Below are positions 21,578-46,040 of a stretch of DNA of 64,000 bases, piece after piece. The stretch lies in assembly GCA_965113315.1 (NCBI GenBank), contig OZ220376.1; one strand, written 5' to 3'. Position numbers and translations under genes: made by a program. The notes beneath the pieces are model-generated. The model had not been told where the DNA came from. It saw nothing but the letters and a program-made list of their open reading frames with translations, and did not search any database. Every line of letters begins with the position of its first letter. The stretch's first letter is position 1. Origin of the DNA: Podarcis vaucheri. Taxonomy: Eukaryota.

Positions 21578-22427
21578 ACTGTACTGTATTTTGAAAGTAT
21601 TTCTATGGTTTAAGTGAAAGTTTAATGTAATTTTAACTAGCCTGAAGGAGATTATAACTTCGTTGAGCTTTAACACAATATACTTCTTTGGGTGACTATA
21701 GAATATGTGGAATTTAAACTCTTGTGATCTGAGCAAACAAAACGAGGTGAAATAACAAGCTGCAATAGTGCTGTTTATGGTGCAGCAAAATAGTTCATAG
21801 TGAAATTTTATTTCACTTTTCTGGGTGTCTGGTTTGTAGGGAAACTAGCCTCATATAACTAACATGCTTAAGTCTAATTAATGCATGAAGGAAGTAAGCT
21901 ATCCTGCAAAACTTAACTAGGTCACTCCCCCTCGCCTTGGGAGGGAAATCATCAAGCCTGTTGTTCTTCCTGGTCTACCAGAGAAGCTCAATGTGTGAAG
22001 AGGTTCTGAGCTGATTGCTCCAAGTTCAGACCACATGGCTCTAACAAGCCTTTCTTGAGAGTTCCTATACCAATAATTTAGACACTTCATCACTGTGACT
22101 AAGCCAAGTTTTCTGACTCATGTATGGACACATGAACCTGACCTTTGAAGAGCTTGTAAATTAACCATTTTTTTTGGCCTTTTTCTATGCTAGGGGAAGA
22201 CGGGAACTTTGGAAGTACCAGAAGGGCATATTTGGGGGGAGCAACAATCTAAGGGGACACTTTTGGAACTCACAAGAACACATATATTAAAGGTCTAACA
22301 GCCTATATTCCCATGCTTTACATTGCTGCATATTTTGTGATTTTAAATCAAAGAATACTTGCCCCAAACCTGGATCTTGGCATCCAGGAATTCTCCTTTT
22401 ATGCCTATTTTTTCATGCATCCATGGA

Positions 22428-22660
22428 AGTGTGCAGTGTATAAAGTTTGGAGTAAGACTAGGAAAACCTGGATTCACACCACTGCTCAGCAATCTAGCTC
22501 ACTGAGTCAGTCACAATCTCTGTGTAAACTACTTTAAGTTTGTGTAAACTACTTTACACAGTAGTTACAAGGATAAAATGGGGTGTGGGGACCATGTGTG
22601 CTTATTTGAACTTCTTGGTGGAAAGGGAGGATATAATGTAGCAAATAGAATAAATAAAAA
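22428..22660 (+). mobile_element. MIR-like (Squam3-type) SINE
   Basis: Decayed tRNA head (gactaggaaaacctggattcaca), core ..ggataaaatgggg.. and L2-like tail ending aataaataaaaa; internal tgtgtaaactacttta duplication. Confidence 0.7.
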
Positions 22661-23559
22661 GTAGCATTTCCTCTCAATACACATGTGCATACTATTCACT
22701 TGATCCTATTCCTGAAGTTCATTATTATGATTATTTAGCACTTGTCTGTTTAGTAGGACCCATACCCAATTATTCTCCTTTTACTGGTTATTTCAAAGTA
22801 GTTTTCAAATGAAAGTTTTTGAAGAATGCAAAAAAAATTCTTGTTATCCATTGACCTTTTGCAGATTTGTGTTCCCTGTTCTGCTCTGTGATGACTTATG
22901 GATTCACTGAACAGTTTGCTTGAAGGCATTTTTCTTATACTAGCCATTGGCATGAAAAGGCCGCTTTGATCTTCAGAATATTTTAACTAAAAAGATTAAA
23001 AGCAAAGCTAGTGGGCATTTATTTTCTGTTGAAAGTGGGAGTTCTTTCTTTGTTCACCTCCTGCTCAGTTTGGTTTAAATAGCATCCCAACCCAGCTATA
23101 GACATGAATGGGAAGACCCATGTTGGAAGAAATGTGTCTCCTGCTGTCATGCATAGTTTGCCTTTGCTGTTTTAAAGGAAAGTCCATGTAAACACAGGTG
23201 CAGAGGTAAGAGACATTTGTAAACAGTTGGTCCGGAGGCCCATAAAATGCAAATGGATTAAAATATAGTGGAAGGTATAATTTGTCATAGCTTTGATGCA
23301 TTGCTGAAATGATCTGTTAAGAGGTGCCTCAGATATGTTAGAGGTTTCAAAAAGAAGCATTTACAGTCTGCCCCTTCATTCCTAACTTGACTTCAAAATA
23401 GTCAGAAAGGAGCCCTGGATAGTTGCTGTCCTTAATCTTGGTAAAAGCCAAATCTAAACTTTGAGCTGGTGTAGATGTTTATACCTAGGGAATGTTGAAG
23501 TATCTGGCCCTTCCAACTACCAGAATCAATGTCTCTGTTGTTCTCTAGAAAAAATTGCC

Positions 23560-24158
23560 CACCCCACAACATGCAAGCAGAGGCTCTTATTTGTAAGTAA
23601 GAAAGAGATTTTGACTGAGGCAAATAACAGGTTCAGCAGCAGACACAAGGCTTGGGAGTCATGGTTCAGGAGTTCCAGAGAAGGGGGGAAAGTTCAGAAC
23701 AGGATGGAAGCAACAATGACGTTTCAACAAGTTTCCATGTTCTGCCTGTGAAACTTTTAAAAGCAATGCTTGATTAACTCACTTGTGAGATTTACTCACC
23801 TTGTGGGAATGTCCAGCCTGCAAATGTGTCCTCTTCCTGGATGGGTGGGTCTTCTTCCACCTGCAAAGCAGTGCTGGTTCTAGGCAGCAAGATTGCATGC
23901 TTCTGTTGGAACTCCTGTTTGTTTCCTTCAGCCTCTGGCTCCACCATTCCTCTTGGCTGCTCAAAGCTCTCCGGAGCCCCCACTGAGGCTCTTCACTGTG
24001 CAGGAAATTTGGGGAGAGGTGGCAGTGGCATCCCTGCTCCCCCTTTCAGACTGGCTGTAGTTGGTGAGAAAAGAGATTTCCCCCCTCCTCTGACCCAGGT
24101 TTCTACCATGTAGCCCCCTCTCTGTTTCTACCTCCTCCTCTTGCGTCAGAGCCTGACA
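23560..24158 (-). mobile_element. Probable Gypsy-type LTR remnant
   Basis: Minus strand starts tgtcaggctctgacgcaagaggaggagg, followed by a purine-rich body and a tttaaaa TATA-like box. The other terminus and a TSD were not found. Confidence 0.45.
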
Positions 24159-26394
24159 ATTCAAGCCTTATCTCAGCATTGCTGTGAGGCTTATGACAGA
24201 ATTCACAGCCTGCAGACAATGATCAGAAACAGCCATTGTCCCTATGATTTAATGTAGAAAGAGACTCTATCTGCTGTATAGAAAGCCTACTCTGGTTTGA
24301 ACTCCAAAGATAAAACATCAATAAAACTGTGGCTTAAATAAATGAAACTACTCTTTAGAATATTATAATTCTGATGGCTTGTTCACATATGAATTATTTT
24401 ATTTAATCTTAAAACCTTCTCAGCTCCATGGTAGCTGCTCATTATTGTTTCACAATTAATGATTAGATGCTGACCCTACATTTTCAGAATTGTCTGTTTT
24501 TCACCTCAGTTGTGAATTCAGAATCTGAATTTGATATTCTAGTGGATGCTTTCTCCATTGTTGAATTCAAAAGTAATTTCATATACCCAGACACTCAACC
24601 TCCCCCCCCCCGGAAGTCTCACATTTAAACCCAATTCCAAATTTTATGTTGGTCTATGATTTTAATATGTTCATTAAATTTTTTTGGTTCTAATACATTA
24701 ATTTTATGGTGAGATTTGGTATTTCGTATTTTCCCTACAACAGTATAACATAATTCTATACTAAAAACATATGATGGCTAATTCATTATAAAGTGACAGA
24801 AGTTTATATTAATTTTATATTTAAAAGCTTTTATTGTCCTTAATTCTGGTGATTATACAACACAACAGTGTTGGCTTTACGTACAAGTAGTTATCAATTA
24901 TTCAGTCATGAGAAAAATGACTGAGGTCCAAATGTCCTATTAATTCATTTCAGTCTAGAAAATTTCTTATAATTGGCTTGGCAAGAAGAATGAGTGAGAT
25001 TAGTTGCTAATGAGAAGATAAGTATAGTAATTTCTGCATGATGTAAAACTCTGATTGTCAGTAGGTAGTAATAGGGATTCAGATTATTTTTCATGGGATC
25101 TTGCTTCTTTGTGAGAGATCATTAACATTTTCTGATATTGTAAATTGAGTTATTTCACACCTGTACTTTTTTCACTAGGCATTAACCCTCCAGCCACAGA
25201 TACTGATAAGTTTTGCTAATTAGGGAGTCATTAATGCAGTTAGGGAGATGAGCAATCAATTATGACTCGTTCTAATAATCTAAACAAAAACTTAATTGCA
25301 TAAATTCATCATGTTCTTTGAATCTTTATCAATGTAGCAAAAATGCCCATGCAATTGTGAGCAGCAAATCTTTATCATGTGACAGTACCAATAGTTTTGT
25401 AAAGTGATGGTTTCAGTGACTGTTGAAATTCAATGGTTTTAATAAAAAAGATGCCACTTTTATCCTGTTTTCACGCCAACAATATAGTAGTAGTAGTAGT
25501 AGTAGTAAACAAATGAACCATTTTGTTGCATGTCCTTTGTCCTAGCAAGAATGTTTCCATTCAGTTTTATAGGCAGTCAAACCACGCTGTGCTCCACAAA
25601 GTCTTCCCACCCCCCCCCCACCCCACAGTTTTCCAATTTTCTTTTTCCCAAGATGACACATACTCAATTGAAACAACATGGCTTATTACCTTTTAACATG
25701 GTTGTTGCTGAACTTTCCTCTGTTTTCTGTGCCATAAAAGGTTATCTTTTTGTAGAACTCTATCCAGGTGTTAACTGTTTTGCTCCAGAACACTGACACC
25801 AATTTTACAGTAATTGACTTTAATCTCAGAAAGTTCAGTTGTCTCTATATGGACTTTTCCATCAACTTCTTTTTTAATGTTAACATATGAAGTTACAAAC
25901 AATTGAAAAGCCCTTCTAAGAAGACAAACCAAATTAGGACTATTAAACCTGACAAAAATGCAATGCATCATCTTGTGGAGCAGACTGTATGACAGAAATT
26001 GAAGGTAGCTCTGCTTGCCTCCAGAAGCTTATTTATTTGTGACAAATGCAGTCTCAGGCAGAAGTGGAAGTATAAGTCAAGTGAAGTATCGGAAGACAAA
26101 GAATATTTTATTAAATATATACTGTAGATAAATAGAAAATAGAAAAAGTACAGAAGAATAAAGAACATTGTGTTTAGCAGTGCAATCTTAAGCTCACTAA
26201 GGAGAAAGACCTCATTGAGCTCATGTGATCTATATCTGGGTAAATAGGGAAACTACCAGGGAAATTCCTACTCACAGTGAAATGCGCTAGCTAATCATAA
26301 TATAAATTTCAGTTATTAATTTCCTCCCATGAAGCTACTCAAATACGAAAGCCATTACATATATAAAAAACAATTTTAAATCCAATACAGATAC

Positions 26395-26635
26395 TGACAA
26401 GGATAAGACTTATTGAAAGAGCAAAGTCTTCAACACTAAAGAGACGATAGAGATTGTGCTTGCCTGATATGTAATGGCAGGGAATTGCAAAAACTAGGTG
26501 CCACCACACCAAAGGTCCATTTCTGACACCCTGCAGAACTGACCTCCTATTAAGATGATATCTGCAGGATGCTCACTCCTGCAGAACACAGGGAACAATT
26601 GCATATAGAATGGCTGAGACTATCTTTAAGGTCTT
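26395..26635 (-). mobile_element. L2 LINE 3' ORF2 fragment
   Basis: aaagtcttca..gcctgatatgtaatggcagggaattgcaaaaactaggtgccaccacaccaaaggtcc is the reverse complement of the L2 (FSVxAPxLWNSLP) region. Confidence 0.6.
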
Positions 26636-27201
26636 CTCATTTTCTAGTTAAAAACCACTCCATTTAGTGACTAGTTGGATGTTTGAAATGGAACACTAAT
26701 ATTCTGTATGTCTGTTCAGACTTATTGAATGGAATGGGCCTTATTCCCAGGGGACTGTGTGTAGGGTTGCTTCCTGCACACTGCTTAACTATGTGGTGCG
26801 TTTCTGGGTATCTTAAGAAGGGGTAGTGGTGACCATGTTATGGAGTGACATCTGGGGATTTATGTGTGAATTAAGACCACATATTCAAAACAGTATTAGG
26901 CCTGTAATTATTCGTAAATAGATTCTCAGGTAGCTTGTGTAGTTCCCTAATGATACATGACTTGTATCATTTGTCATGGGAAACAGCCAGAGGAGCCTGA
27001 GCGAGCCATCAGAGGAATGTCAGAAGACTGCTGCTGCATCCAGGCGAGGGCCCTGCATTAGTCACCTCATGGGTGCAAAAGTCTGAGGTCCTAATTGCTC
27101 TCCCATTGTAAATCCAGAAAGAAAAATCTGCATCTAAATAACACATACTTTATCGGCCTTGAGAATCTCCAATGATTATATTTATTAACTTTGCCTTCTA
27201 T

Positions 27202-27233
<32 letters not shown>

Positions 27234-28914
27234 GCACCTAGGTTCCTCAAACCTTTATTAAATATATCCTGTTATTGCAACTGGTACATACAATCAGCAG
27301 AATTAGTGGGTAATGAGGTGGCATTGCACATTGCACCACTTGAGATTGCAGGACAATTTGCATTTCTAATGTCCCTTCGTACTGTGAAAGTATGCATCTG
27401 TACTGGAACTATTTTTCAACTATTTTATCTATGGGATTGATTGTAATTGTTTTATATATGAAACTGTTTTAATTGGTTTTACATTTTTCTTGTTTCATGG
27501 TTATAACTGCTTTTATTTGTTTTATAACTGTATATTTTGCTGCTGTAACCTGCCCCGGGACTTTTTGAGTAAAAAAGGGTGTGTGTGTGGGAGGGGGGAA
27601 TCATAACAAACAAATAATTAAATAACTTTTTAAAAGACCCCAACAAAACTTGCCCATAAGTAGAAAAACTGTCTGTAGGTGTAGGCTATCCCTTTTCCTT
27701 TCTCCCTGCAGTAGCAGCTTTCTATATGCCAGAACAAATATTCAAAAAAATGCAAATTTCCAAGGAGTCTGAACTGTCACAGGGTAGAGCAGGGCTGGGG
27801 CTTCATTCCTTTTGGCAACTATCATAGGCCAATGTGCCAGGGATAGGCAGGGCCAGAGGCAAAAGTGAGAGAAGTAATGAATGCACATTTTACTTTTGTA
27901 TACTCACCATTGGTATAATTAGAAAGCATTACGGCCCTTGAATGAAATTACAAAATGATTTCAACTGAAGATCACAATGCAGTTTGCTTTTATCCATCAA
28001 GAATAAGTAGAAAGTGGCACACAATCTATGTGTAATTTCTCTTACACGGCAGAAATGTAAACATTTGGAAAGAAGTACCCATAGTACTGCTGCCTTGGCT
28101 GTGTGAAGATTTTATGGGAATGGGATGAGCAGATTTGCGGGGTCAATATGTTCAGTTCTGTTGATGAATTCAGGCAATGAAAAGCTGCATTAGAATAATG
28201 CAACTGGGAAGTTCAAATGGGATCTCTAACTAATAAGCACAACCAGCAACTTGTCACACTTATTTGCTGACTGGTGATGTTTATATAAAGGGACATCTGG
28301 AGTTTACTAATTAAACTGCTTATAAGTGATAAGTAATAATGATTAATTATCACCTTGACAATCAAAATCATCATCCTTTAGAAACTTTTGTTTACAAATG
28401 CAGAGTGCATATATGAAAGCTGTCACCTTGTTAATAATTGAGCTATTTTCCCAGATTTAAAACAGCACCAATAATTTCTGAGAAACAGACCAGTGTTTTT
28501 CTCCTCTCAAAGGGGGAATCAGATATCTGGTTCCTGCTTGCTTTGTGACAAAACAATAAAAGAGGTAATGGCTCACAGTTGTGGAAACCTTTTCACCCTG
28601 AGGGTCACATTCCCTCATGAACAACCTTCTGGGGGCCAGATGCAAAAGCTGGTGTAACAATGTAGGTGACAGAAATCTGCACATAGCAAAGGTTTCTATA
28701 CAAACACATATAACTCCATCTCCCAACACATGGCCTTTCCCCAATATCAAACTTCGCACTCTAATCCTATTCCTCCTTTGACCGGTATCTCCAAGAAGTC
28801 TCAATGGGGCTCATTACACCCTTAATGTCTAGTCAGTATGGGTATTAATAGTTATATTTCTCAAGAATCTATATTAGCCTATATGCAGGAATACAGATAT
28901 AATCTACATACAGT

Positions 28915-29187
28915 GGCCTTGTTTGCATGCCATGGTAAACCAAACTGTAGCTTATCAGGCCCCTGGGAATGTGCTGGCTCCTTTTCCCAGTCCTTTTAGC
29001 ACAGAACATGGCACACCATAAGGTAAATTATAGGACAAACCAGATCATGGTTAAGGAGGAGAGTGTCACCATGTGCCAAAAATCCAAGGAAGGAGCAAAG
29101 GTGGTATGAGCTCCTCTCTGAGAGTCAGCATGTTTGTGTGGTCTCAGTAAGCCATAATTTGGCTTACTGTGGCATGCAAGCCAGGCC
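28915..29187. mobile_element. PIF/Harbinger-type MITE
   Basis: ~40-bp TIRs at ~32/40 identity (ggccttgtttgcatgccatggtaaaccaaactgtagctta / taagccataatttggcttactgtggcatgcaagccaggcc) and 3-bp TSD agt. Confidence 0.75.
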
Positions 29188-30090
29188 AGTGAGAATGGGA
29201 AGCTTTCCACAGCTACTAACAGCTGAAGGAGGAATCATTTTGCCCCAGTCTTTCAGCTTTTGTCTGTCTACTCTCCTTGGTATTACTGCATTATCTGTCT
29301 TGTTGGGATTAATTTGATTGCTTAAAAACAAGGCAGCATTTTTTCCTTCACAAAGTGATGGGAAAAATTCATAGAACGAAAAAAGGGAAAGTTAATATAT
29401 CCTATTTTTGTAGGATTATGAAGTTATGAAAGCACATTGTCCATAATGCAAAAATCACTATGAATCAAATTTTGTAGTCTGTGTGTTTAGTCTCTCAACC
29501 ATTTGATCCAGCAATGGTTGAAAGCTATACATGTTTGTGGCTACAGAAATTTATTCCTGGAAATTTCATGGCACTGACTGTTTCAAGATCTATGTAAGAA
29601 AGAAGTAGGCAAAGTTAAGTGAACTTGATTTGACTTTACATGCATGCTGAGAGGGGAAGTAGTGGAGCAGACATATGCTAAACCTTTTTTACATGGATCC
29701 CAGGGGCAGGAGAATATAACAAAAGCTAGCCTCCAGACTGGTAAGGCCTACCCATGCCCCTTCTCAGCTTCTTGAGTTCCCCTCAGCAACACATCCATGT
29801 CCCTCAGCAGCCATTTAAATTTCATTGAGTTCAATAGGAAAGTGGGCATAGAATTGCAGCCTAAACTGCTGCTGGTGGGAATGTTGAGTGCTGAAATACC
29901 AAGAGAGCAATGAGGTCTTCCTGCCAGTGTTTCTGATACTGGAATATGAACCATTTTGCTACCATGTAAGCCTGGGTTCCATTTCCTCTGACATTCAAAA
30001 ATGCATATAGTGCAGCAGTACTTAAACACTAGCAAACTGATAAATCTCTGAATGGTTAGTACCAAACTGTTCTTATATTAATTCATTCTG

Positions 30091-31562
30091 GAGCAATCCA
30101 AACCAATTACAGATACAATATGGAAGAGCAAGCTGCCACTGTTCTCAAGAAAGAAGTATTTTCTAAAGCAGGAAGGTTCATGTCACAAAAGTGAATAATG
30201 GTCATGCTTTTTTCTCCAGATTGTACATAGTACAGTGATCCTGAGATGGCTGAATACATGTTCAGGCATGAGAACCAGCCAATGCCTCCACTGTTTGCAA
30301 ACTCTAGTGAACTCTGGTAGCAAAGCAGGCCATCTCTTGCAGCTCAATACACTAGCAGATGAAGCCTTTGTTTTATCACTTGTCTGCTGCCCTGAGCTTG
30401 TTTGGGAGGAAGAGTATACTATTAATTAAATCAATCAATATAGTTTAATAAACAAACAAACCCTGAAATTGTCTTTAGTGGTCCCAGATAGAGGTGTAAT
30501 AGATTGAATGATGTCATTGGGAACTTCACAAGCATTTCAAGAATACACTGACAGTTTCCCTGCCCTATATTTTGCAATGCCTAGAGTATGTGGACAAACT
30601 AGACATAGTGTGGGATGCCTACATCTAAGGTAGGCAGCAAGCAGAAAGAAAAGAAAAGAGGCAAAAGTGTGAGGTGCCTCCTTTGCTTTGATAAAGATAA
30701 AACTGATCTGTTACATCTGTTGACAGAAAACGTTAATTTTTTTAAAAAGGCAAAGAAGTGTACAACACCTTGGAGTTTCAAGTACCATGGTCACCAGGCA
30801 AACAGTACAACAATTGCATTGAACCATGCTTTCATGAGGAAGCTGACGCAAATATGATGTTGCATGCATCAGGTGCACCACATACCAGTCAGCAAATGTT
30901 CAGGAAAGCAGAGGTAGCTGGATTTTATCATCATTGTGTTCAGCTTGTAACACATTTCAGTCACTTTGGTGTGGGCAAACACCACCAGCGCATGAAATTT
31001 CAGTCAGTTTGAACCCAAGGTAAACAAATATGTTATCTATGTTAATATTCCCCAGGTACAATATGATGTCTTCCTTTGCTGAGAAAGCCAAAAAGCTAGT
31101 TTGTGACATATGGAACATATTTCCAGATGTCTCAAACATTTCTAGCAGTAGCCCTGACAAAACCATGGTACTACTTTTAAAAGGTTTTTTGTAGTTCTGC
31201 ATGGTAGAACCAGTTGATTGTGTGAAGTCAATCAGGCAGGGAAGCCTCTGTTTTCAAGAAGGTCATGATACCTAGAGAATATTCTCTGCCAACACAGGCA
31301 TCTGTCACATACCACAAAAATGGAAAGTATGTATGGAGGAAAGATTTCAAAGAGATCCAAGGTAACCAAGTCCTGCAAATTGAAGGTGGGGAAGGAAAGG
31401 TGGAATCAAGGGCAACCAAAATGGATAAATCTTGGCCAATCTCAGGAGAAGTGCTATGAACTGATACATTAACTTGCATGTAGAGGCCCATGCAAATGCT
31501 GCAAGGCCAGCCTTAATTGCACTGCTCTTTGGCACTGTGAAGGAAACTGTTTTCATAAATAA
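30091..31562 (+). mobile_element. Fossil AcademX-type DNA transposon protein (C-terminal half: XPG/PIN-like nuclease + Cys-rich finger), pseudogenised
   Basis: Colinear motifs across frameshifts: KPITDTIWKSKLPLFS; FFSRLYI; FRHENQPMPP; GTSQAFQEY..LPYILQCLEYVDKLDIVWDAY..KRGKSVR; DKDKTDLLHLL; PCFHEEADANMMLHA; FGVGKH..PAHEI; SSFAEKAKK..IWNIFPDV; RFFVVLHGRTS..VNQAGKPLFS..LENI/LPTQ; PSPAN*RW; CYELIH*LACRGPCKCCKASLNCTALWHCEGNC, then a stop at 31560-62. Confidence 0.85.
30368..30460 (+). mobile_element. L2/SINE 3' tail inserted within the Academ fossil
   Basis: ctgccctgagcttgtttgggaggaagagtatacta..aataaacaaacaaac interrupts the coding motifs. Confidence 0.6.
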
Positions 31563-33286
31563 TTTGTCTTGAATAATAGGGGAAATACTTTGCAGAGTGA
31601 ATGTATGACATAAACAGAACAAGTTTCTAGGTTTCCAATTGATTTGTGAAATATATACATTACCATGACTACATTCAGTCTCATAATACAATATCAATTT
31701 GCATGCGCGAACTGTAGAGAAATTTTAATCAGATTGTGTTGCTTTTAATCCCATTGCTTCCTGTCTGTCATAGATAATATGTGTGGAGTGCAAGGTGTCA
31801 GCCAGAGGAGGGACTCAGAAACAGTACAGGACCCAGCAGCACAAGATAGGAGAAAAGGGCTGTGGTGCACTCAACCACAAGGGAGCAAAGAAGCTACAAA
31901 GTGATTGAAGAAGCCAGGATGAAGGGTGGAGCTAGTAGGTAGGAAAAGCGAAAAGAGGGAGCAGGGGGAAGATGAAGGAGAGAGGGCAGATGCCCAGAGA
32001 GAGCAGGAGGCTCAGAGAGGAGTGGTACAAATGGCAATACAGTGCTGATGCTGCCACCAGTTGGGCTTAGCAGGTATTGATGATTGGGAACGAAGGCTAA
32101 AGCAGCAGCAGTAGCCTGGAATGGTGAGGTCAACTAAATCAAAAGCAACACATCCAGCTCACATAGCCAAGCATCTTAAGGGAAGGTATTTTGTAAGAGA
32201 CTAAAGAGAACAGATAAAATCAAACTGGCTGCATTGTTGGTGTTTTTGTTGTTGTTGTTGTTTTGTCAAGTGGAAACAGTCCTCCATATCATGTTGGAAG
32301 CCCAACCAGACTTTTTCCTGTGCTCTTCACTATGGAACTCTGCTGATCTGGAACCCTATGACAGAGAGCCATCTCTGGAAAGCCCAAGTGCTGTGACACC
32401 GTGCTTCCCAAATGATGAAACAGCTGTTTGAAGTTCTTCTCAAAGTGTTATCAGGATCATAAAATGAAACCTTAAGGAAGACAAACTAAAATCAAACAGT
32501 AGTGCTCCATGTACCAAGGGGCTTAATCTTTTTGAGGAAAATGTGACAGTTTACATTTTTGGTGCTTTAAAGGGCTGTAATTCATTCTGTCTTCTGCTGA
32601 AATTAAACAAATGCAGCTAGGCATGTGGCACATATTTTGTGGAAATACTGCACAATGTTTATGGCTCATTGAGAAAGGTTATTTAGTATGAATAAATTCA
32701 AATCTCCATCCTGATTAAACATGACAGCATAAATAAGTTAATTTATAAGAATATAGAACATGCTTGGATCAGCTAATATCTTTATTTGACCAATATCTGC
32801 TGGTGGTGAGGCATGCTTTCTAGAGCATTTGGTCCAGGTTTGTGAGTCTAGAAATGCTTATTGATCCCATAAATGCTCACGTTATTCTATGTTGCTATGT
32901 AGCTATTTTCACAGAAAACCATGAAGGTTCAGCAGTTGATTTCTTGTAATTCAAAGCAATTCTAGTTTTCGCAAATATGTTTTCAATATTAGTGCTAAGC
33001 TTAACCAGTTGTTTACTAGCAAAATAAATCAAATGTGAAAGAAGTAGGTTTTTCTTCCATGGGACCAGCTTTATCACTTATCTGAGCCAAGTGGATAATG
33101 ACTGTGTGCTCCTTGGAGATTATATATCTGTGCTTTGAGATGGAGACAGTGGGATAAGGAAGGTGGGTGCTCTAGGTACAACATTCAAAATTTATGGTTT
33201 GTTAATATGTCACATAAACTGAAGACAATAAACAGTACCCCTTAATTGCAAAAAAGTAAAAGCCTGTCACTGGTTATTACTTAGAC

Positions 33287-33995
33287 CAGGCTTGGGGAAC
33301 CTGTGACTCTCCAGTTGATGTTGACTACAACTTCCATCAGATCCACCCAGCATAGCCAATATTCAGAGATAATGGTAGTTATAGAATAATAGAATTGTAG
33401 AGTTGGAAGGGACCCCATAGGTCATTCCTGCAATGCAGGAATCTCAACTAAAGCTTCCATGACATATGGCCATCCAACATCTGCTTAAAAACTTCCAAGG
33501 AAGGAGAGTCCACAACCCCTGAGAGAGTCTGTTCCACTATCAAACAGCTCTTACCACCAGAAAGTTCTTCCTGAAGTTTAATTGGAATCTCCTTTCTTGT
33601 AACTTGAAGCCATTAGTTCGAGTCCTACCCTACAGAGAGGGAGAAAACAAGCTTGTTTTATCTTCCATGTTACAGACTTAAGATATTTGAAGATTTGATT
33701 TGTCTGCCATTCCTTGTTTTTGAAAAACCCATACTGGGTCTTAGTACTCACAACATCCTTTTCTAAGTTCTCATACTGACCATTTAATGATCTGTTCTAG
33801 GACCTTTTCTGGTACTGACATCAAGCTGACCTTTCAGTAGCTACCTGGATCATCCCCTTCCCCCTTTTTGAAGATTGGGACAACATTTGCCCACCTCCAG
33901 TCTGGAGGGACCTCACCTCTTCTGCAAGAATGCTGAAAGGTTATAGGTAGTCTATACTTAAAAACATATGAAGGACTACAAATACCTCATATCTT
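33287..33995. mobile_element. hAT MITE split by a CR1 insertion (left part 33287-33383, right part ~33946-33995)
   Basis: Left caggcttggggaacctgtgactctccag..gactacaacttccatca and right gtagtc..aaaacatatgaaggactaca resemble the two halves of the intact MITE at 60040-60176. Confidence 0.55.
33384..33945 (-). mobile_element. CR1 LINE, 5'-truncated and internally deleted
   Basis: Minus strand: GEVPPDWRWANVVPIFKKGEGDDPGSY*KVSLMSVPEKVLEQIIK..QYGFFKNKEWQTN joined to IFKYLK..GRTRTNGFKLQERRFQLNFRKNF..WNRL, ending in an attcta-type tail. Confidence 0.9.
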
Positions 33996-36900
33996 ATTTA
34001 GGGTGCAATCCTAATATTGGTTGCTGCCTATCAGGGCAACAACAGTATCCATAGCCCTGCTGAGCCTACCAGCTGGTAGAGGTGGAGGAGGAGACAGATT
34101 GCTGAGCTGATACCATCATATGGTAACAGTGGGGCTGGCTTGAGGTCTGATGAATCCCAGACTGGCTCAGCCCCTCTTTTTTCTAGAATGCCCCATTTGG
34201 GGGCATTTCACCTTATTGTCACCACCAGGGATCCTGTGGGTGTAAGTGGGAGTTCTGCACTGGTGAAGAGGCAAAGGTGTTACTCTGCAGACTGAGGCTG
34301 GAAGTGGATCACCTCTGCCCAATCCAACGCCATCCCTGGCCTGACACAAAAGGGCATTTGGAGGGCTCTGCCAGGTGGAAAATCAGATTCAGGAAATGTT
34401 ATTTTCACTGAAGACTTTTTGAAATTTAGGGGAATTAAACACAGCTTCTTTGGACTAAGCAAATACATTTAAACACAAGAATTAAGACCAGTTGATACAA
34501 GCCTATTGCTGTGACCCCTGATCAGTGGCTGAAGTTGATGGAAGTTGTAATCCAATAACATTTGAAGAGCCAAAATACTGTAGATACACTGTATTTTTTC
34601 CGTGCAGACTATAAATGTTTGTAATTTGCTGTGATTGTGATAAAATTATTCAGAGAGCACAATTTTGTCAGATTAAAATGCAGTCCAATAGCTTTGTGAT
34701 AATACAAATGAATGAAACCTTTCTCTTCTGAATTAGTTAATGAGTGCAATGCCCTCTATATTATATTTTCATACACAAATGTCTGAAGACAATAAAAGCT
34801 CTGTAATTTTCTCCTCCTGCTTTTGTAAAATACATCAGAGTACAAATATCTCTCTCTTTTTGTTCCATGTGAAACACTTTATGCTAATGGAAAAGTTAGT
34901 TTCATTGGGTAATCTATTTTATGTAAATTATATGAAGTGTTCCAGTCAAATGATGTTTGAATATTTGCTAAGTGTTTCTGAAGTAAAATATTTATTGGCA
35001 CTTACACTATTAAACATTGCAGTACTATTAACTACCATATTTCTGGGGTGTGTGGGTGTGTGAAAAGCGACATTCCCTCTTGTTTGTACCAGCTTTGGGG
35101 AGCCAGGAAGTGAAATAATAATATATATACTGCAAAGTTGAATAGCCTAAGCGACAATAAATATTCCTTTAGGGAAAAGTATGTCTTAAAGATTTCAAGC
35201 AAATATCCATGACAAATATTGATGTTTAGAGGTGATGAAAGAAAACTAGATGCTCACAAAATCTTTCTTGAAGGTACCTTTGTTTGTTTTATTGTTGTCA
35301 GTGGCATTAAAGGCACGTCCAACCTGCTTGTACATTATTTCCCCCCACAGTGATGTATGATCTACCGTCCATAATAACTCTCTTTTTATGACTATAGAAA
35401 TCATAGCTGCTTTATGATGAAAGAAATGCCTAATAGTCACTCCTGTTCGAAAGTGGGTTTCTGAAACAGCAGGAGTGAGATGGTTTTTGCAAATTGCAAT
35501 ACAATATTAGATACGGAAGAGTCTGAACTTGTAATGTCTGTCCCCTCCCAGAAATGACATTTAATTATAGTACTAGCTTTCCAGATAGCAGGTACTCAGT
35601 ATGGTGTATTTTAAGATTATGCAATTTGTGGGAAAGGACATAAAAAGGACTTTTTAAGAAGGGGGTAAAATATATGCACTTTGATGAAGAACCTTTAAAA
35701 CATGCACTGGCTGTCAGGGCAACAGCTTTGCTTTGGTGTACCTTATTTTCACATGAAAGTTGTTTTTTTTAAAAAATCATTTGACAAATACTGTCAAACA
35801 TGGTAACCCCATCTAATCCCTTCACTGCACATCTTAATCCCTGATGGAGTGTTCTCAAATAGATGGGCTGTGAGGTTAGGGAGTTTTCAGATGTGATGTC
35901 TCTGCAGTCGTCTCCCACTGACAGATGCAGTGACCTTATCACACAGACAGCTCTATACAGCGTGACAGCTCAGCCATCTGGCTTGTATTGATCATAATTG
36001 ATTTAAGGAAACTGATCCTCCAAAGCTAGATGTTGTTAAACCCCACAGCAAAACTTGACATACTTTTTATTTGGAGATTTGGACCCTTAGGGTTCTCTAC
36101 TCCAAACCCTTTGTTTTGTCCAGTTCAGTGGCTTAATTCTTCCATGCATATCATCCCAACTCCGCTAAAACTTTATTATATTAATAGAATGTATCATACA
36201 TTCTGGGATAAATAGAAAATGATATAACTTATACATTTCAGCTTTGTTTGATCTTTAATTAAAACTGAAATGAATTGTAAAAATGGCTGGTTAAAATTAC
36301 TTTGTTTTTCTACAAGGATAGTTAAAGGTTTTAGGTTACTCTTCTTTTGAAAGAAGGGAGGAGGTATTCCCTCCTGCAAAATCAACTAAATTGCACTGCC
36401 TCCCTTCTGTTGGTAAGAATAGAGTCTTACAGAACTTGTCTGTGCATCTGTGGTTGATAGAGAGAAGTAGTCACCTGACACCACAATTTTACTGGGTGAC
36501 CCATTTTCCTTTGCTCACGTGATTTGAAATCAAACCATGTGGGCAAAAGAACAAGTGGTTGCAACTGCTGCCATGATCATTACCAAAAGTAAATGATGTG
36601 CTGCCACCATTAATCAGTTGATCCATCACGCCTGCAAATTCCACTTATGGCCAGGATACATCTTTATCTGTCCCAGATAAAGGGTATGGAAGGTGAGCAT
36701 GGCATGGCCAACCAGTCTTGCAGGTCAAATGGGGAACCCTGAGTGGCCAGATTGGACCCACAGGCCAGGGGGTCCCTCACCATGGCAAGATCTACTGACT
36801 TATTTTGGCAGCCTTCTTGGTATTCTGATTCCCCCCCCCCAATATTAGAATTAGAATTGTTTTCTGTCTTAACAGTATTTTGTCTAAGCAACAATTGGTG

Positions 36901-38156
36901 CCAATTGCTGTCCAAAATTCATTCTCATTCTCTCTCTCTTGGGATAGGAAACAAATTTGAACCTGCCCCTTCCCTTCATACCCCAATCTGTGTAGATGAA
37001 TGTTTTCCCCATGTAGCATCCAGGCTTCCATCTTGCCTTTGCCTTATGCTGTCAGTCAGTAAAACAACTTGTGAACCACACTGATGCTACTACAGATCCT
37101 CTGATGTCCTGCTGCTTCTCTTGTGCAGCAGCTTTTGGTTACCTGTCAGCATGGTAAAGTCTCTAGTACCCAAATGTATCCATACAGTTTTGGGGGGAAA
37201 AGTACCTGCCATGGGATTGACTTGAACAAGGTATATTCCAATGTCTTTTGTGTTGGTTTGTAATAAACCTGGAGCCATTGTTTAACCCAGTCACCTAATC
37301 TCTTCTGCAATCTGTTTGCAATAAAGTTGTTTTTTTTTAAAAAAAAAATATGATGTCAACATTTTGTTCAGCTGCTTTTATTTGCTGCGGAATAACTATT
37401 ACCATATTTCACTTCAGACATGAGGAAATAATTCTGGCCCAGCAATGAAGACATACTCCAGTTCAGTTTGTATACTTGTGCACATGCTAGAACAATCCCA
37501 GAAGCAAAAACAATAGCATGAGACACAGTAGATGGCAACAAATGGGGGGGGGATATGTATTGGAAGGGTATAGACTGCTCTGATGCAAATTGTCAATTTA
37601 GGAGGGATTTTCTTCCATATCAGGCTAGTGATTCTTCATTGTTGCTTTTACATTAGTAGCAACTGAATGTTAAATTTTAAAATCTTCCGCATCAGTTTGT
37701 AGCTGAATTGTAGCTGTATTTGTAGCTGAAACTCCTTAGATTTTTTTTTTTTACAAGTTCACCAAGCATAATAAAATGCCCCTTCATATTTTTCGCACTT
37801 CCAGCAAACATTGGGAACACCTTTATACATTCTAAATAATTTAACCATGTTTACTCTTGGCACATGTTAACATCTTGTTCCATCTTTATATCTTTCTTAT
37901 ATGGGCTATTCAGTTAGAAATGTATACATACACCCCAGGCTGAGCTTCAGTTAGATGATATTCAGTATATACTGTTGTATGATTCTTCTAATACATTGCA
38001 TTTCTCTCCATTAAAATGGCAGTTTGTGTAAAGATAGCTGCACCAGTATCTTCACTTTGCAAATTGTGAATGGGTATAAACCAGAAATATTTAAATTATA
38101 TATAATTGGTAGGATCTTATTTGAAGAATTTAGTTAAATAGATGAAGGAGGGGGGA

Positions 38157-38158
<2 letters not shown>

Positions 38159-38200
<42 letters not shown>
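38159..38200. repeat. (GA)n microsatellite
   Basis: Perfect GA run of ~21 units. Confidence 0.98.
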
Positions 38201-38203
<3 letters not shown>

Positions 38204-38829
38204 GTGTTTACTATGATTTAGGGATTCATCCAGTGTATTACAAGGAATTAGAGTATTTAGACATTTACAGCTTCTTAACAGATTCAATTTGTGCTGGAGA
38301 TAATTGAAGTCTTTCCAAAGCTGTGTGCATCCCTAACATGCACAGAAAAGGACAGCTTACCATAACTCTCAAGGGCTCAGTAAAAGGCATGGTTCCTCAA
38401 GGATTTTGCAGAATGATATAGAACAATGCAGTCTAGCTGTTCAGAGATCTCATTAGCATTTCACTAGTATAACAAATTGAGGTGATTGTCCTTCCATTTT
38501 TTCTCCATGAAATGCAGTACTCTCTGAATTTGTTCTTCTGCCTAATTAATGACCTATGGATTGCAAGGTGTTTGGAAGAGTTATATTGCATGTCTCCAGT
38601 CATTCTACACTGCTTTCTTTAAATTTGCAACCACTATCTTCAATAATTCTTCATAATGTCTGGATAGGATTAATATTTTGTTTCCAAATCAGAATTGCGA
38701 GTGGTAATATGCTTTAGTGGACCAGCTCAACACATATAATTTGTGAGTAGGTTCAGATGATTTCTGATTCTTTTTATAACTTTCAGTTCTTATTTGAGGA
38801 AATGTTTTCTGTTCCAGGTTCTACCTAGA

Positions 38830-39193
38830 ACTCAGACATAAGGTCTCCACAGATATGAGCAGGACCCTCCTGCAGATCTCTATATTTCCAATGATCCTGA
38901 TGAGTCAATAGGTCTGGACTGTGTTATAGCTTTCAACATTCCCAGCTCCTCCAGAGCTACTGGAGTAGAGGAAATTGTGAACCAAGGAGGAACCTTGGAG
39001 CATCACTAAAGTACCGTAAAAAGCAACTTGGAAGGAGGAAGAAGTGCATGGAAACATGTGCTTTGAGCAGAACTTGAGTGAGAGCCAGGAAGGGGCAAAG
39101 GCCTTATATAAGTTGCCACTCTGAGGTGCTTCATTACTGAAGCAACAACTCTTATCTCAGCTCTAGACTTCCTAAGCTGTCTCTTTTGAGACA
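38830..39193 (+). mobile_element. Possible LTR remnant
   Basis: Purine-rich body, then ttatataag and gcaacaac, as in the 54070 LTR; termini not resolved. Confidence 0.3.
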
Positions 39194-39201
39194 CTAGTTG
39201 C

Positions 39202-39621
39202 CAGGGTCAGCCTAACACATTTTGGCAACTGAGGCAATCCACAAAATGGTGCCTCCATCTGCCAGGGAAGAAGGGAGTGAAGATCTACATTAGGAACAAG
39301 GGAGGGATCAAATCAACTTTACCCAATGGCTGAACTGGGAATCAATGGTGGGTGCAGACCTCAGAGGGCAGCCCCCACCATTTCCTCTGTGGGGGTGGGA
39401 GGAGAACACCAGTGCCTTCTATCTGCCAAGAGGCCACTGTGGAGGCAGCACTGGGGTGGGCTACTGAGGAAGCAGCAGATCCAACCCCCAAAGAGTGTGC
39501 TGCAGCCGCTGCTGGCACTATGTCAGCAGTGACAGGTGGTGCGTTTCCAGATCGGCTGCCTCTGTGGATCCTTCAACCTGAGGTAGTCACCTCACCTTGC
39601 CTCATGGGCAGGCCAGCCCTG
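39202..39621. mobile_element. Non-autonomous hAT element
   Basis: TIRs cagggtcagcct / aggccagccctg and perfect 8-bp TSD ctagttgc (39194-39201 / 39622-39629). Confidence 0.8.
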
Positions 39622-40792
39622 CTAGTTGCCACAAGGTGTGCCGCTGTTTATTTGTTAAAATTATTCCTATCCTGTTTTTCATTGCAAGCAATTTCAGAGG
39701 GGGTTTACAAACTTATGTTACATTTAGCACACACTGTGGGAATTTAGGTGGGCTGTATGGTCCTGTGAGAGGCTGGTCAATGTGATGGGTGGGGAGTGAG
39801 ATGGGTTTCAACCATAGCCAATGCCATATAATATTCCCTTGTGCACAAAACTGAACTCAGGTGCATCAGTTAAAAAAAACAAAGATCTTCTGACAGCAGT
39901 GCATAAATAGTAATCAGAAGGACCCTACAGAGAATATGCATAACAAACAAGGCCATCATTCAAATACTAGGACTGTTATCTATTTGGTGTGAGAGAGAAA
40001 ATGAAGACCATATCTTGATTTGTAGCTGACCCTTACTGCTCCTGATGTATTCTTTCAAAACTCATAATATCCTTTTACAAGTATTGTGCTTTAACAGGGT
40101 TTGTGCAAATCATGGTGTTGTAAATATGTCCTAGGGGACATCTGTAAACACATCAACAAGTGTCTGCTTTTCTATGGAGATCTGATTACCATGCTGAAAT
40201 TACAAACAGCATAGACACAGTTACAATAATGGTTACAAGCGCTCTTTGGATCTGAAATTTCATAAATTTCATTTTGGAGCAAGAGGTCCCCAAGGGCTGG
40301 TTAGATTTATTTAATTACGTTGTACAAGACTTGGGTAATAGTTTTAGATCAAAGTATAAAAATCCACTTCGAGGCAAATTTAAAACATAATTCAAAGTGG
40401 TAGATCGCTCAGTTTGTCAGCATTTGCTCTCTGGCAAAATTTATAAAGATAGGTGTGGAACTAAAAGTATACAGATTTCAACCATTTTATTATAGGGGTT
40501 AAAAAAATAAAAATAAAAAATACCACTGATTATTATTATTTTCCCCACAGCACAAGGTGGTATTGCAATGCTAGCAGTGAAACAAAGCAAAACTCTTCCT
40601 TGCTACCACAGTCATATAATATTAACCCTTTTGCAAGCAAGAAGGAATCTTGCTATTTATTTTTATTATGGGAAAAGCTATAGCAGATTGATTAAATTAT
40701 TTATAAATAATTCTGTTTTGCTAAAGATATGCCAGATATTTTATTTTTCATCAGACATGAAATTTATTTCCTGGTTTTATAAATACATATTC

Positions 40793-45289: not shown

Positions 45290-46040
45290 CTGTCTTTCAG
45301 CAACCTGGCAGCTACACTGTGGGGTGCTGCAGGGACTATCTCTGGTACTACTTAATATCTACATGGAGACGTTGCGAATGGTCCTCAGCAGTTTCAGAGT
45401 GAGGTGCCTTCAGTATGCTGATGACACTCCGCTCTACTACTCCATAATATCTGAATCCGGAGAGGCCACACAGTCCCTGGGGCATTGCCTGAGCACAGTG
45501 GTGAAATGGAAGGGGGAAAATGAGTTTGAACCCCGGCAAGATGGAGGCACTGTGGGTGAGTAGCTCCCACGTCTGAGAAATTGGTCGGTTGCCTACTCTG
45601 GATGGGGGTGCACTCTCCCCGAAGGAGCAGGTTCACAGTTTGGGGGTGCTTCTGGATCCAGTTCCATCACTGGACGCTTAGGTAGTAGAAGTGTGCAGTT
45701 TACTAACTGCCACTGGTTTGACAACTACAGCTGCTCCTGAAGCAGAAAAGCCTTGCCACAATAGCTCATGTATTGCTTATTTCAAGACTGGATTACTGCA
45801 GTGCACTTTATGCAGGGCTTCCCTTGCGCTTGATTGGGAGGTTGCAAGTTACTGCAGAATACTGTCCCCCTGTCAGCTTATAACACCTGTGCTCAGAGAT
45901 CAGCACTGGATGCCAGTCTGCTACCAGGCCAGGTTCAAGGTGTTACTGTTAGTATACAAAGCCCTTCATAACTTGGGATCTGTTGCCTCTGAGATCACCT
46001 TACCCAACATGTGCCCACTCAACCTCTTCAGTTGGTGAAA
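45290..46040 (+). mobile_element. L2 LINE RT/C-terminal fragment
   Basis: GVLQG..LLNIYMETL..CLQYADDTPLY..; later HITP-like LITPVLRDQHWMPVCYQARFKVLLLVYKALHNLG. Confidence 0.88.

Follow-up and report, generated by a model that had tools for sequence, protein, structure and literature searches.

The window, by which we mean the whole 64-kb stretch of DNA that was analysed, carries on its plus strand a decayed coding segment that aligns with the last third of an Academ transposon reading frame, together with part of a non-coding arm. The features are listed here with the evidence for each.

30085..31559, plus strand: decayed last third of an Academ ORF (linker, XPG/FEN1-like nuclease, and terminal Cys cluster); profile alignment, alignment to the protein P0029, and tblastn
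30085..30367, plus strand: linker before the nuclease (profile positions about 1022-1110); profile alignment
30368..30460, plus strand: probable retroposon 3' tail insertion of the L2 or L2-partner SINE type, end approximate; DNA matches
30461..31345, plus strand: remnant of an XPG/FEN1/EXO1-like nuclease; profile alignment and the fold of the homologue P0028
31455..31562, plus strand: C-terminal Cys cluster and stop codon; motifs and profile alignment
31563..31720, plus strand: first ~160 bases of the non-coding right arm; DNA homology with other copies

The DNA was aligned, with frameshifts allowed, to a reference profile of 36 intact full-length homologues (1531 positions). Positions 30085-31559 pair with the profile from position 1022 to its last position, 1531, over 459 aligned codons and at a score of 217, compared with a maximum of 24.2 in controls comprising the rest of the 64 kb on both strands and the reversed or complemented window, which bears out the initial annotation in its claim of a colinear AcademX-type fossil. 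The closest intact protein, P0029, agrees with the fossil at 206 of 453 codons, across 8 stops and 11 frameshifts, and a reversed-profile control in this comparison scores 23.8; the number of stops varies from 5 to 8 with the reference protein. Protein identity to the decayed window copy is 45% for P0029, 44% for P0021, and 41% for P0176. A phmmer search of 1.84 billion proteins with one frame, read as X at stops, returned 8 matches at E ≤ 0.001 (best 7e-7), and tblastn of these relatives placed colinear blocks on the window between 30088 and 31571. The X-read frame had no match in a word-indexed protein search, and Pfam on three X-read frames gave weak unrelated matches only.

The peptide motifs quoted in the initial annotation were checked in translation and lie on the plus strand where it had placed them: DIVWDAY at 30602, HEEAD at 30833, SSFAEK at 31069, CRGPC at 31479, and CEGNC at 31536. 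Its remark that open reading frames reveal only scraps of the protein also holds, as the longest plus-strand frames at the fossil fall below 120 aa. Among the acidic motifs of the nuclease, D-x-VWD (30602) and HEEAD (30833) are retained and the TDTD-type and GCD-type motifs are lost; the Cys-rich finger occupies 31473-31550, and the corresponding cluster of the homologues is named Tesmin/TSO1-like CXC in database entries. An XPG-type nuclease and a C-terminal Cys-rich finger are typical of AcademX. The fossil had been placed at 30091..31562, which is the right location, with homology beginning ~6 bases earlier and non-coding homology with other copies running past the stop to about 31705-31725. 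It had further been called an ancient, heavily deleted copy; the fossil is real, and internal losses amount to only 51 of about 504 codons relative to P0029, so that truncation at the two ends, and not heavy internal deletion, describes the copy.

At its 5' edge the fossil breaks off abruptly at profile position 1022, past the DDE domain. This edge is a truncation and not the end of the element, since two other genomic copies (L057 and L135) extend further upstream; the DNA before the fossil (29400-30100) matches none of the fetched family copies. At the other side, the remaining ~400 bases of the right arm and the terminus are missing. The DDE half and the TIRs had been noted as not seen, and accordingly no second profile match above 24.2 occurs on either strand of the 64-kb window, and a repeat search over 22000-40000 gave no inverted pair bracketing the fossil. 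With no DDE half, no termini, and 11 frameshifts, the locus does not hold a complete autonomous element. As for host genes, none of the 19 window ORFs of at least 120 aa matches Pfam.

Other repeats lie nearby. A small MITE-like element, separate from the fossil, occupies 28911-29191, with 44-bp inverted arms (28911 and 29148) that are 80% complementary and 193 bases apart. The segment 33381-33939 is a very high-copy repeat, whose depth is thousands of times that of its flanks in related organisms. Decayed reverse-transcriptase-like peptides, presumably of the L2/CR1 type, are visible in frame translations of the plus strand at about 14000 and at 45300-45900.

The reading frame of the fossil is interrupted at 30368 by an insertion of 83-87 nt in the profile and P0029 alignments, which ends in a short A-rich microsatellite. 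This piece alone accounts for 19 of the 27 DNA matches of the window to its own genome, 11 of which were aligned. In one copy of the insertion repeat (L014), the upstream peptide resembles what we take to be the end of an L2 ORF2. A tail with an A-rich microsatellite fits a description of squamate L2/Squam3 tails given in a passage of PMC7983390. By this resemblance the insertion is probably a later retroposon tail of the L2 or L2-partner SINE type, and the initial annotation, which had proposed such a tail at this position, is supported by the repeat matches and by the gap in the protein alignments.

With one phmmer relative as the query, we retrieved 383 long relatives, many of about 1520 aa, whose named hosts include sea anemone, soft coral, sponge, molluscs, annelid, lobster, thrips, hagfish, and hake. 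The homologue P0028 was modelled from 98 sequences (pLDDT 89). Its residues 700-1060 match EXO1 (Z 15.0, rmsd 3.8, 263 aligned), XPG and FEN1 (Z 12.0 each), and GEN1 and XRN1 (Z about 12), and Foldseek agrees on the nuclease fold. Residues 1-537 match the P-element transposase (Z 10.0, rmsd 7.1, 355 aligned, for a two-domain model of the homologue and not of the fossil), followed by Hermes (Z 7.5) and RAG1 (Z 6.9), with Transib and integrases also matched. In the alignment A1, D497, D669, and E890 are invariant, as are the Cys residues of the C-terminal cluster. The homologues are thus predicted to combine a DDE transposase, a 5'-nuclease, and a terminal Cys cluster in one protein of ~1520 aa, and the XPG-like nuclease and Cys finger that had been read from the fossil are upheld by the profile alignment and these fold matches. 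Pfam on nine homologues gave nothing except DUF6589 in three of the nine, and PDB sequence searches with P0006 and the alignment A2 gave nothing useful. Some database labels are misleading: in the set P0009/P0220/P0242, a thrips protein carries the name kinesin KIF4, and the other two are assigned to a bacterial MAG, with host contamination as the probable cause.

The genome contains at least 31 other Academ-like loci (searches of the own genome give lower bounds), and every one examined is broken or partial. Fourteen of them belong to the family of the window copy. In DNA alignments, 13 of 16 tested segments (12 loci) match the window at scores of 99-360, compared with a shuffle maximum of 35, and the loci L049, L065, and L066 score 31-34, within that maximum. 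Right-arm homology adds two further loci (L132 and L092), which brings the family to at least 15 copies. The DDE domain is represented in these copies by its end only: L057 and L054 reach this part, including the region of the third catalytic residue (profile 869-1049), with best matches to P0021 and P0029. Divergence at codon positions 1/2/3 is 0.43/0.38/0.42 between the window and L050 and 0.37/0.35/0.34 between L051 and L053. Such near-equal change within the family indicates neutral decay, as expected from one master. Pairs with L004 show a mild third-position excess (0.41-0.52), and on account of such excess in some family pairs subfamilies may exist. A third-position excess marks pairs drawn from different lineages, as between the window and L066 (0.58/0.39/0.69).

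Three copies (L051, L132, and L092) of the four that reach it have a common right end ~0.6 kb after the stop, with CACTA as the last bases before unrelated flanks; the fourth (L053) ends similarly, with changes. For the left end, genome searches with right-arm pieces returned right-arm copies or the query itself only; in one such search a young, unrelated repeat took over the results. None of the three N-terminal loci matches the right arm. Among the genome copies no left end, no copy with both ends, and no target duplication was found. It is worth recording that L054 and L055 (G000:C1:40745050-40753690) are one family copy, in which an internal deletion joins profile position 901 to 1355 and whose two parts now lie about 8 kb apart because of later insertions, among them a 438-bp near-identical duplicate. 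At L002 (about 330-1170), five tandem units of ~150 bp lie just upstream of a family copy.

At a probability of roughly 0.93, we read the window stretch as what remains, after truncation at both ends, of a dead cut-and-paste DNA transposon of the Academ type (AcademX-like) that is present in many copies; its insertion likely dates to the Mesozoic, and it would have decayed free of selection from then on. When active, the element would have encoded a single protein of ~1520 aa. The fold match suggests that the DDE domain would excise the element at both ends and join it to a new site. The most likely task of the FEN1/XPG-like nuclease would have been to trim flaps or gaps that arise in the insertion intermediate, and such trimming would agree with the 3-4 bp length of the target duplications reported for AcademX. 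DNA binding is the likely role of the Cys cluster. One master would have spread to at least 15 sites and died, after which the copies each lost pieces; the window copy would have lost its first two thirds and its right terminus and gained a retroposon tail.

Phylogenetic trees were built from the C-terminal 580 columns, the careful tree with 38 of ~230 usable rows. The window family is sister to the intact proteins P0029, P0021, and P0176 (FastTree 0.999; IQ-TREE 100/99). Where at least three copies overlap with a majority, 140 of 181 positions match P0029 (77%, a value biased upward by a few points), compared with 53-60% for other homologues; the intact sister elements are about 70-77% identical to the family. 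Other lizard fragments group elsewhere: L066 joins proteins of hake and whelk (99/99), L049 and L052 fall in another place, and L047 is very distant. AU tests, from which L047 was excluded for its long branch, reject joining the other lizard fragments with the family (p 0.005, 0.022, and 0.004), on fossil rows with long branches, filled to 20-42% except for the window row, under a simpler model (mixture off), and for groups defined after the first tree. The Academ fragments of this genome hence appear to represent at least three lineages and not one clade. The tree of homologues also ignores host kinship, as Academ proteins of hagfish (P0231) and sea slug (P0214) are 77% identical; those of hagfish and lobster (P0079/P0233) are 64% and those of hake and whelk (P0124/P0274) 66% identical. 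These three pairs are likely, on sequence grounds, to reflect transfers between phyla.

L049 (C27:5.088 Mb) and L052 (C42:45.291 Mb) form a second Academ family, the least decayed, with 1 stop and 1 frameshift over 262 codons in L049. They are only 0.16 apart, which corresponds to ~50 Myr on the rate scale applied below to the window family and suggests a much younger family. L047 (G000:C18:112666800-112668830, minus strand) aligns over 633 codons and is only 24% identical to the profile; since it shows no more than 1 stop and 6 frameshifts, it is probably a younger insertion of a different, much more distant lineage. A "628 aa open frame" in this region (C18:112.667 Mb) was considered as a domesticated gene and rejected, the longest frames being 177 and 190 aa with 6 frameshifts. 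The longest DDE-half fragment, L061 (G000:C41:11098400-11099800; profile 401-837, 414 codons), is closest to homologues other than those of the window family.

The mean pairwise distance within the family is 0.36 in local DNA alignments (18 pairs, biased low) and ranges over 0.40-0.67 in profile-guided codons (biased high), which gives 0.18-0.3 substitutions per copy. According to Tollis 2018 (PMC5798147), the path to anoles from a root at 415 Myr has 0.71-0.73 substitutions per site, or about 1.7e-9 per year. With this borrowed rate the family is likely Mesozoic, at about 100-175 Myr with a wide error, rates of 1.0-2.5e-9 giving 70-300 Myr. The initial annotation had suggested an old amniote family; an amniote age is within the error, which reaches about 300 Myr, and is not favoured, as the divergence of the copies points to a Mesozoic burst.

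How the family came to the lizard lineage can be read in two ways. We lean slightly towards a Mesozoic horizontal entry whose source was another animal and which was one among several separate Academ invasions: the family groups firmly with intact elements and is closer to P0029 at agreed positions than to other homologues, a single clade of lizard fragments is rejected with L066 beside hake and whelk proteins, L049 and L052 form a much younger family, and the homologue tree disregards host phylogeny. Against this, the hosts of P0029, P0021, and P0176 could be vertebrates, even reptiles, and the reptile side consists of one genome with short fossil rows, long branches, and groups defined after the first tree. 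Alternatively, several Academ lineages may have been active since the amniote ancestor and have died at different times in the host lineage, which we regard as possible, at distinctly less than even odds. An Academ protein fossil of 152 bp is shared by human and turtle and predates the amniote split according to Table 3 of Frith 2022 (PMC9004415), a paper that also argues for vertical descent of many patchy TE types; several coexisting old lineages would also look non-monophyletic, and the age stretches to about 300 Myr if substitutions run as slowly as 1e-9 per site per year. Such long descent would hardly yield about 70-77% identity to intact elements elsewhere or the close cross-phylum pairs, and an amniote-age insertion would leave copies about twice as divergent. 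Repeated horizontal entry of Academ into lizard ancestors is plausible from these comparisons, as is the transfer into squamates that the initial annotation had offered as an option. The fuller scenario is tentative, at a little under even odds, namely that Academ invaded squamates horizontally at least three times, from different branches of an Academ tree made up mostly of marine animals. One of these entries would be Mesozoic (the window family) and another as late as ~50 Myr ago (L049 and L052), and together they would have left an overlooked fossil layer in a land vertebrate group.

The window stretch is present in 8 organisms from 10 studies, and no RNA data set is listed among its recorded holders. 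Contigs of six related organisms span both the fossil and its flanks and differ there by 1.2-2.4%, similar to the 1.2-5% of neighbouring DNA; three of the six have 16 extra bases at 30674, and other indels lie near 30735 and 30821. As far as this six-organism comparison goes, the insertion is fixed and unconstrained, and no function of the window copy today is detectable. That the fossil was exapted as a constrained remnant, either a regulatory element or a non-coding exon, might be suggested by its being the longest family fragment found (459 codons compared with at most 205 in other copies) and by two short contigs that fall on it, the runs behind which are guessed to be RNA. We judge this very improbable, because the fossil differs among related organisms as its flanks do and is still accruing indels, and because the RNA label is a guess for contigs of depth below 4, which are no evidence of expression. 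A processed pseudogene of a host FEN1, XPG, EXO1, or GEN1 nuclease, a kind of result that the initial annotation had listed among those that would overturn it, is suggested by the fold of the homologous domain and can be dismissed with near certainty, given that Pfam XPG_I finds seven loci in the genome and none at the fossil, that all sequence matches belong to the transposase-fused family, and that homology extends to the linker and the Cys cluster and on into a non-coding arm, whose terminus is common to several copies.

The copy itself is ordinary dead DNA, and its value is as a record of past Academ activity. It extends a little-studied transposon superfamily to a probable lizard in which several unrelated Academ lineages were active at different times, and this several-lineage picture is the part worth following; if the intact sisters come from invertebrates or fish, it would mean repeated transfer into a land vertebrate. 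The host is taken for a lizard on account of SINE motifs and of the resemblance of the retroposon tail to squamate L2/Squam3 tails. The fossils also supply dated insertion markers and show how much ORF-based annotation misses. No report of Academ in squamates was found in the literature searched: the word does not occur in the reptile papers covered or in the main text of PMC7070016; tables of Repbase, Dfam, or RepeatMasker may already list lizard Academ repeats.

Among known systems, the closest is AcademX, reportedly a lineage of the Academ DNA transposon superfamily in work attributed to Kapitonov and Jurka (2010) and Kojima (2020). In AcademX, a DDE transposase is fused to a 5'-nuclease with a terminal Cys cluster. 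The source element appears alike in its ~1520-aa protein of DDE domain, XPG-like nuclease, and Cys cluster, and in a right arm of ~0.6 kb ending in TA; the window copy differs in being a dead remnant of 1.6 kb, in which the DDE half, both termini, and a target duplication are missing. The family has the letters CACTA at an end in common with EnSpm/CACTA elements. Those elements begin with CACTA, whereas the fossil family has it as the last bases of its right end, and the protein is unrelated by Pfam. The intact P0029, P0021, and P0176, its sister group (100/99), differ in their intact frames. According to a passage of PMC10045372, AcademX encodes a nuclease and makes 3-4 bp target duplications, and AcademH encodes a helicase and makes 9-10 bp duplications; our use of the name AcademX rests on the architecture together with this passage. 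AcademH has the superfamily and a related transposase in common with the fossil; it was rejected as an identity because its partner domain is a helicase, whereas that of the fossil has a 5'-nuclease fold, and no helicase family was found by Pfam in the nine homologues. Academ in amniotes is already known from Table 3 of PMC9004415, where the fossil, like ours, is an amniote Academ protein remnant seen only by frameshift-aware comparison; that one is 152 bp long and older than the amniote split, whereas the window copy is 1.5 kb long, one of at least 15 copies, and apparently younger.
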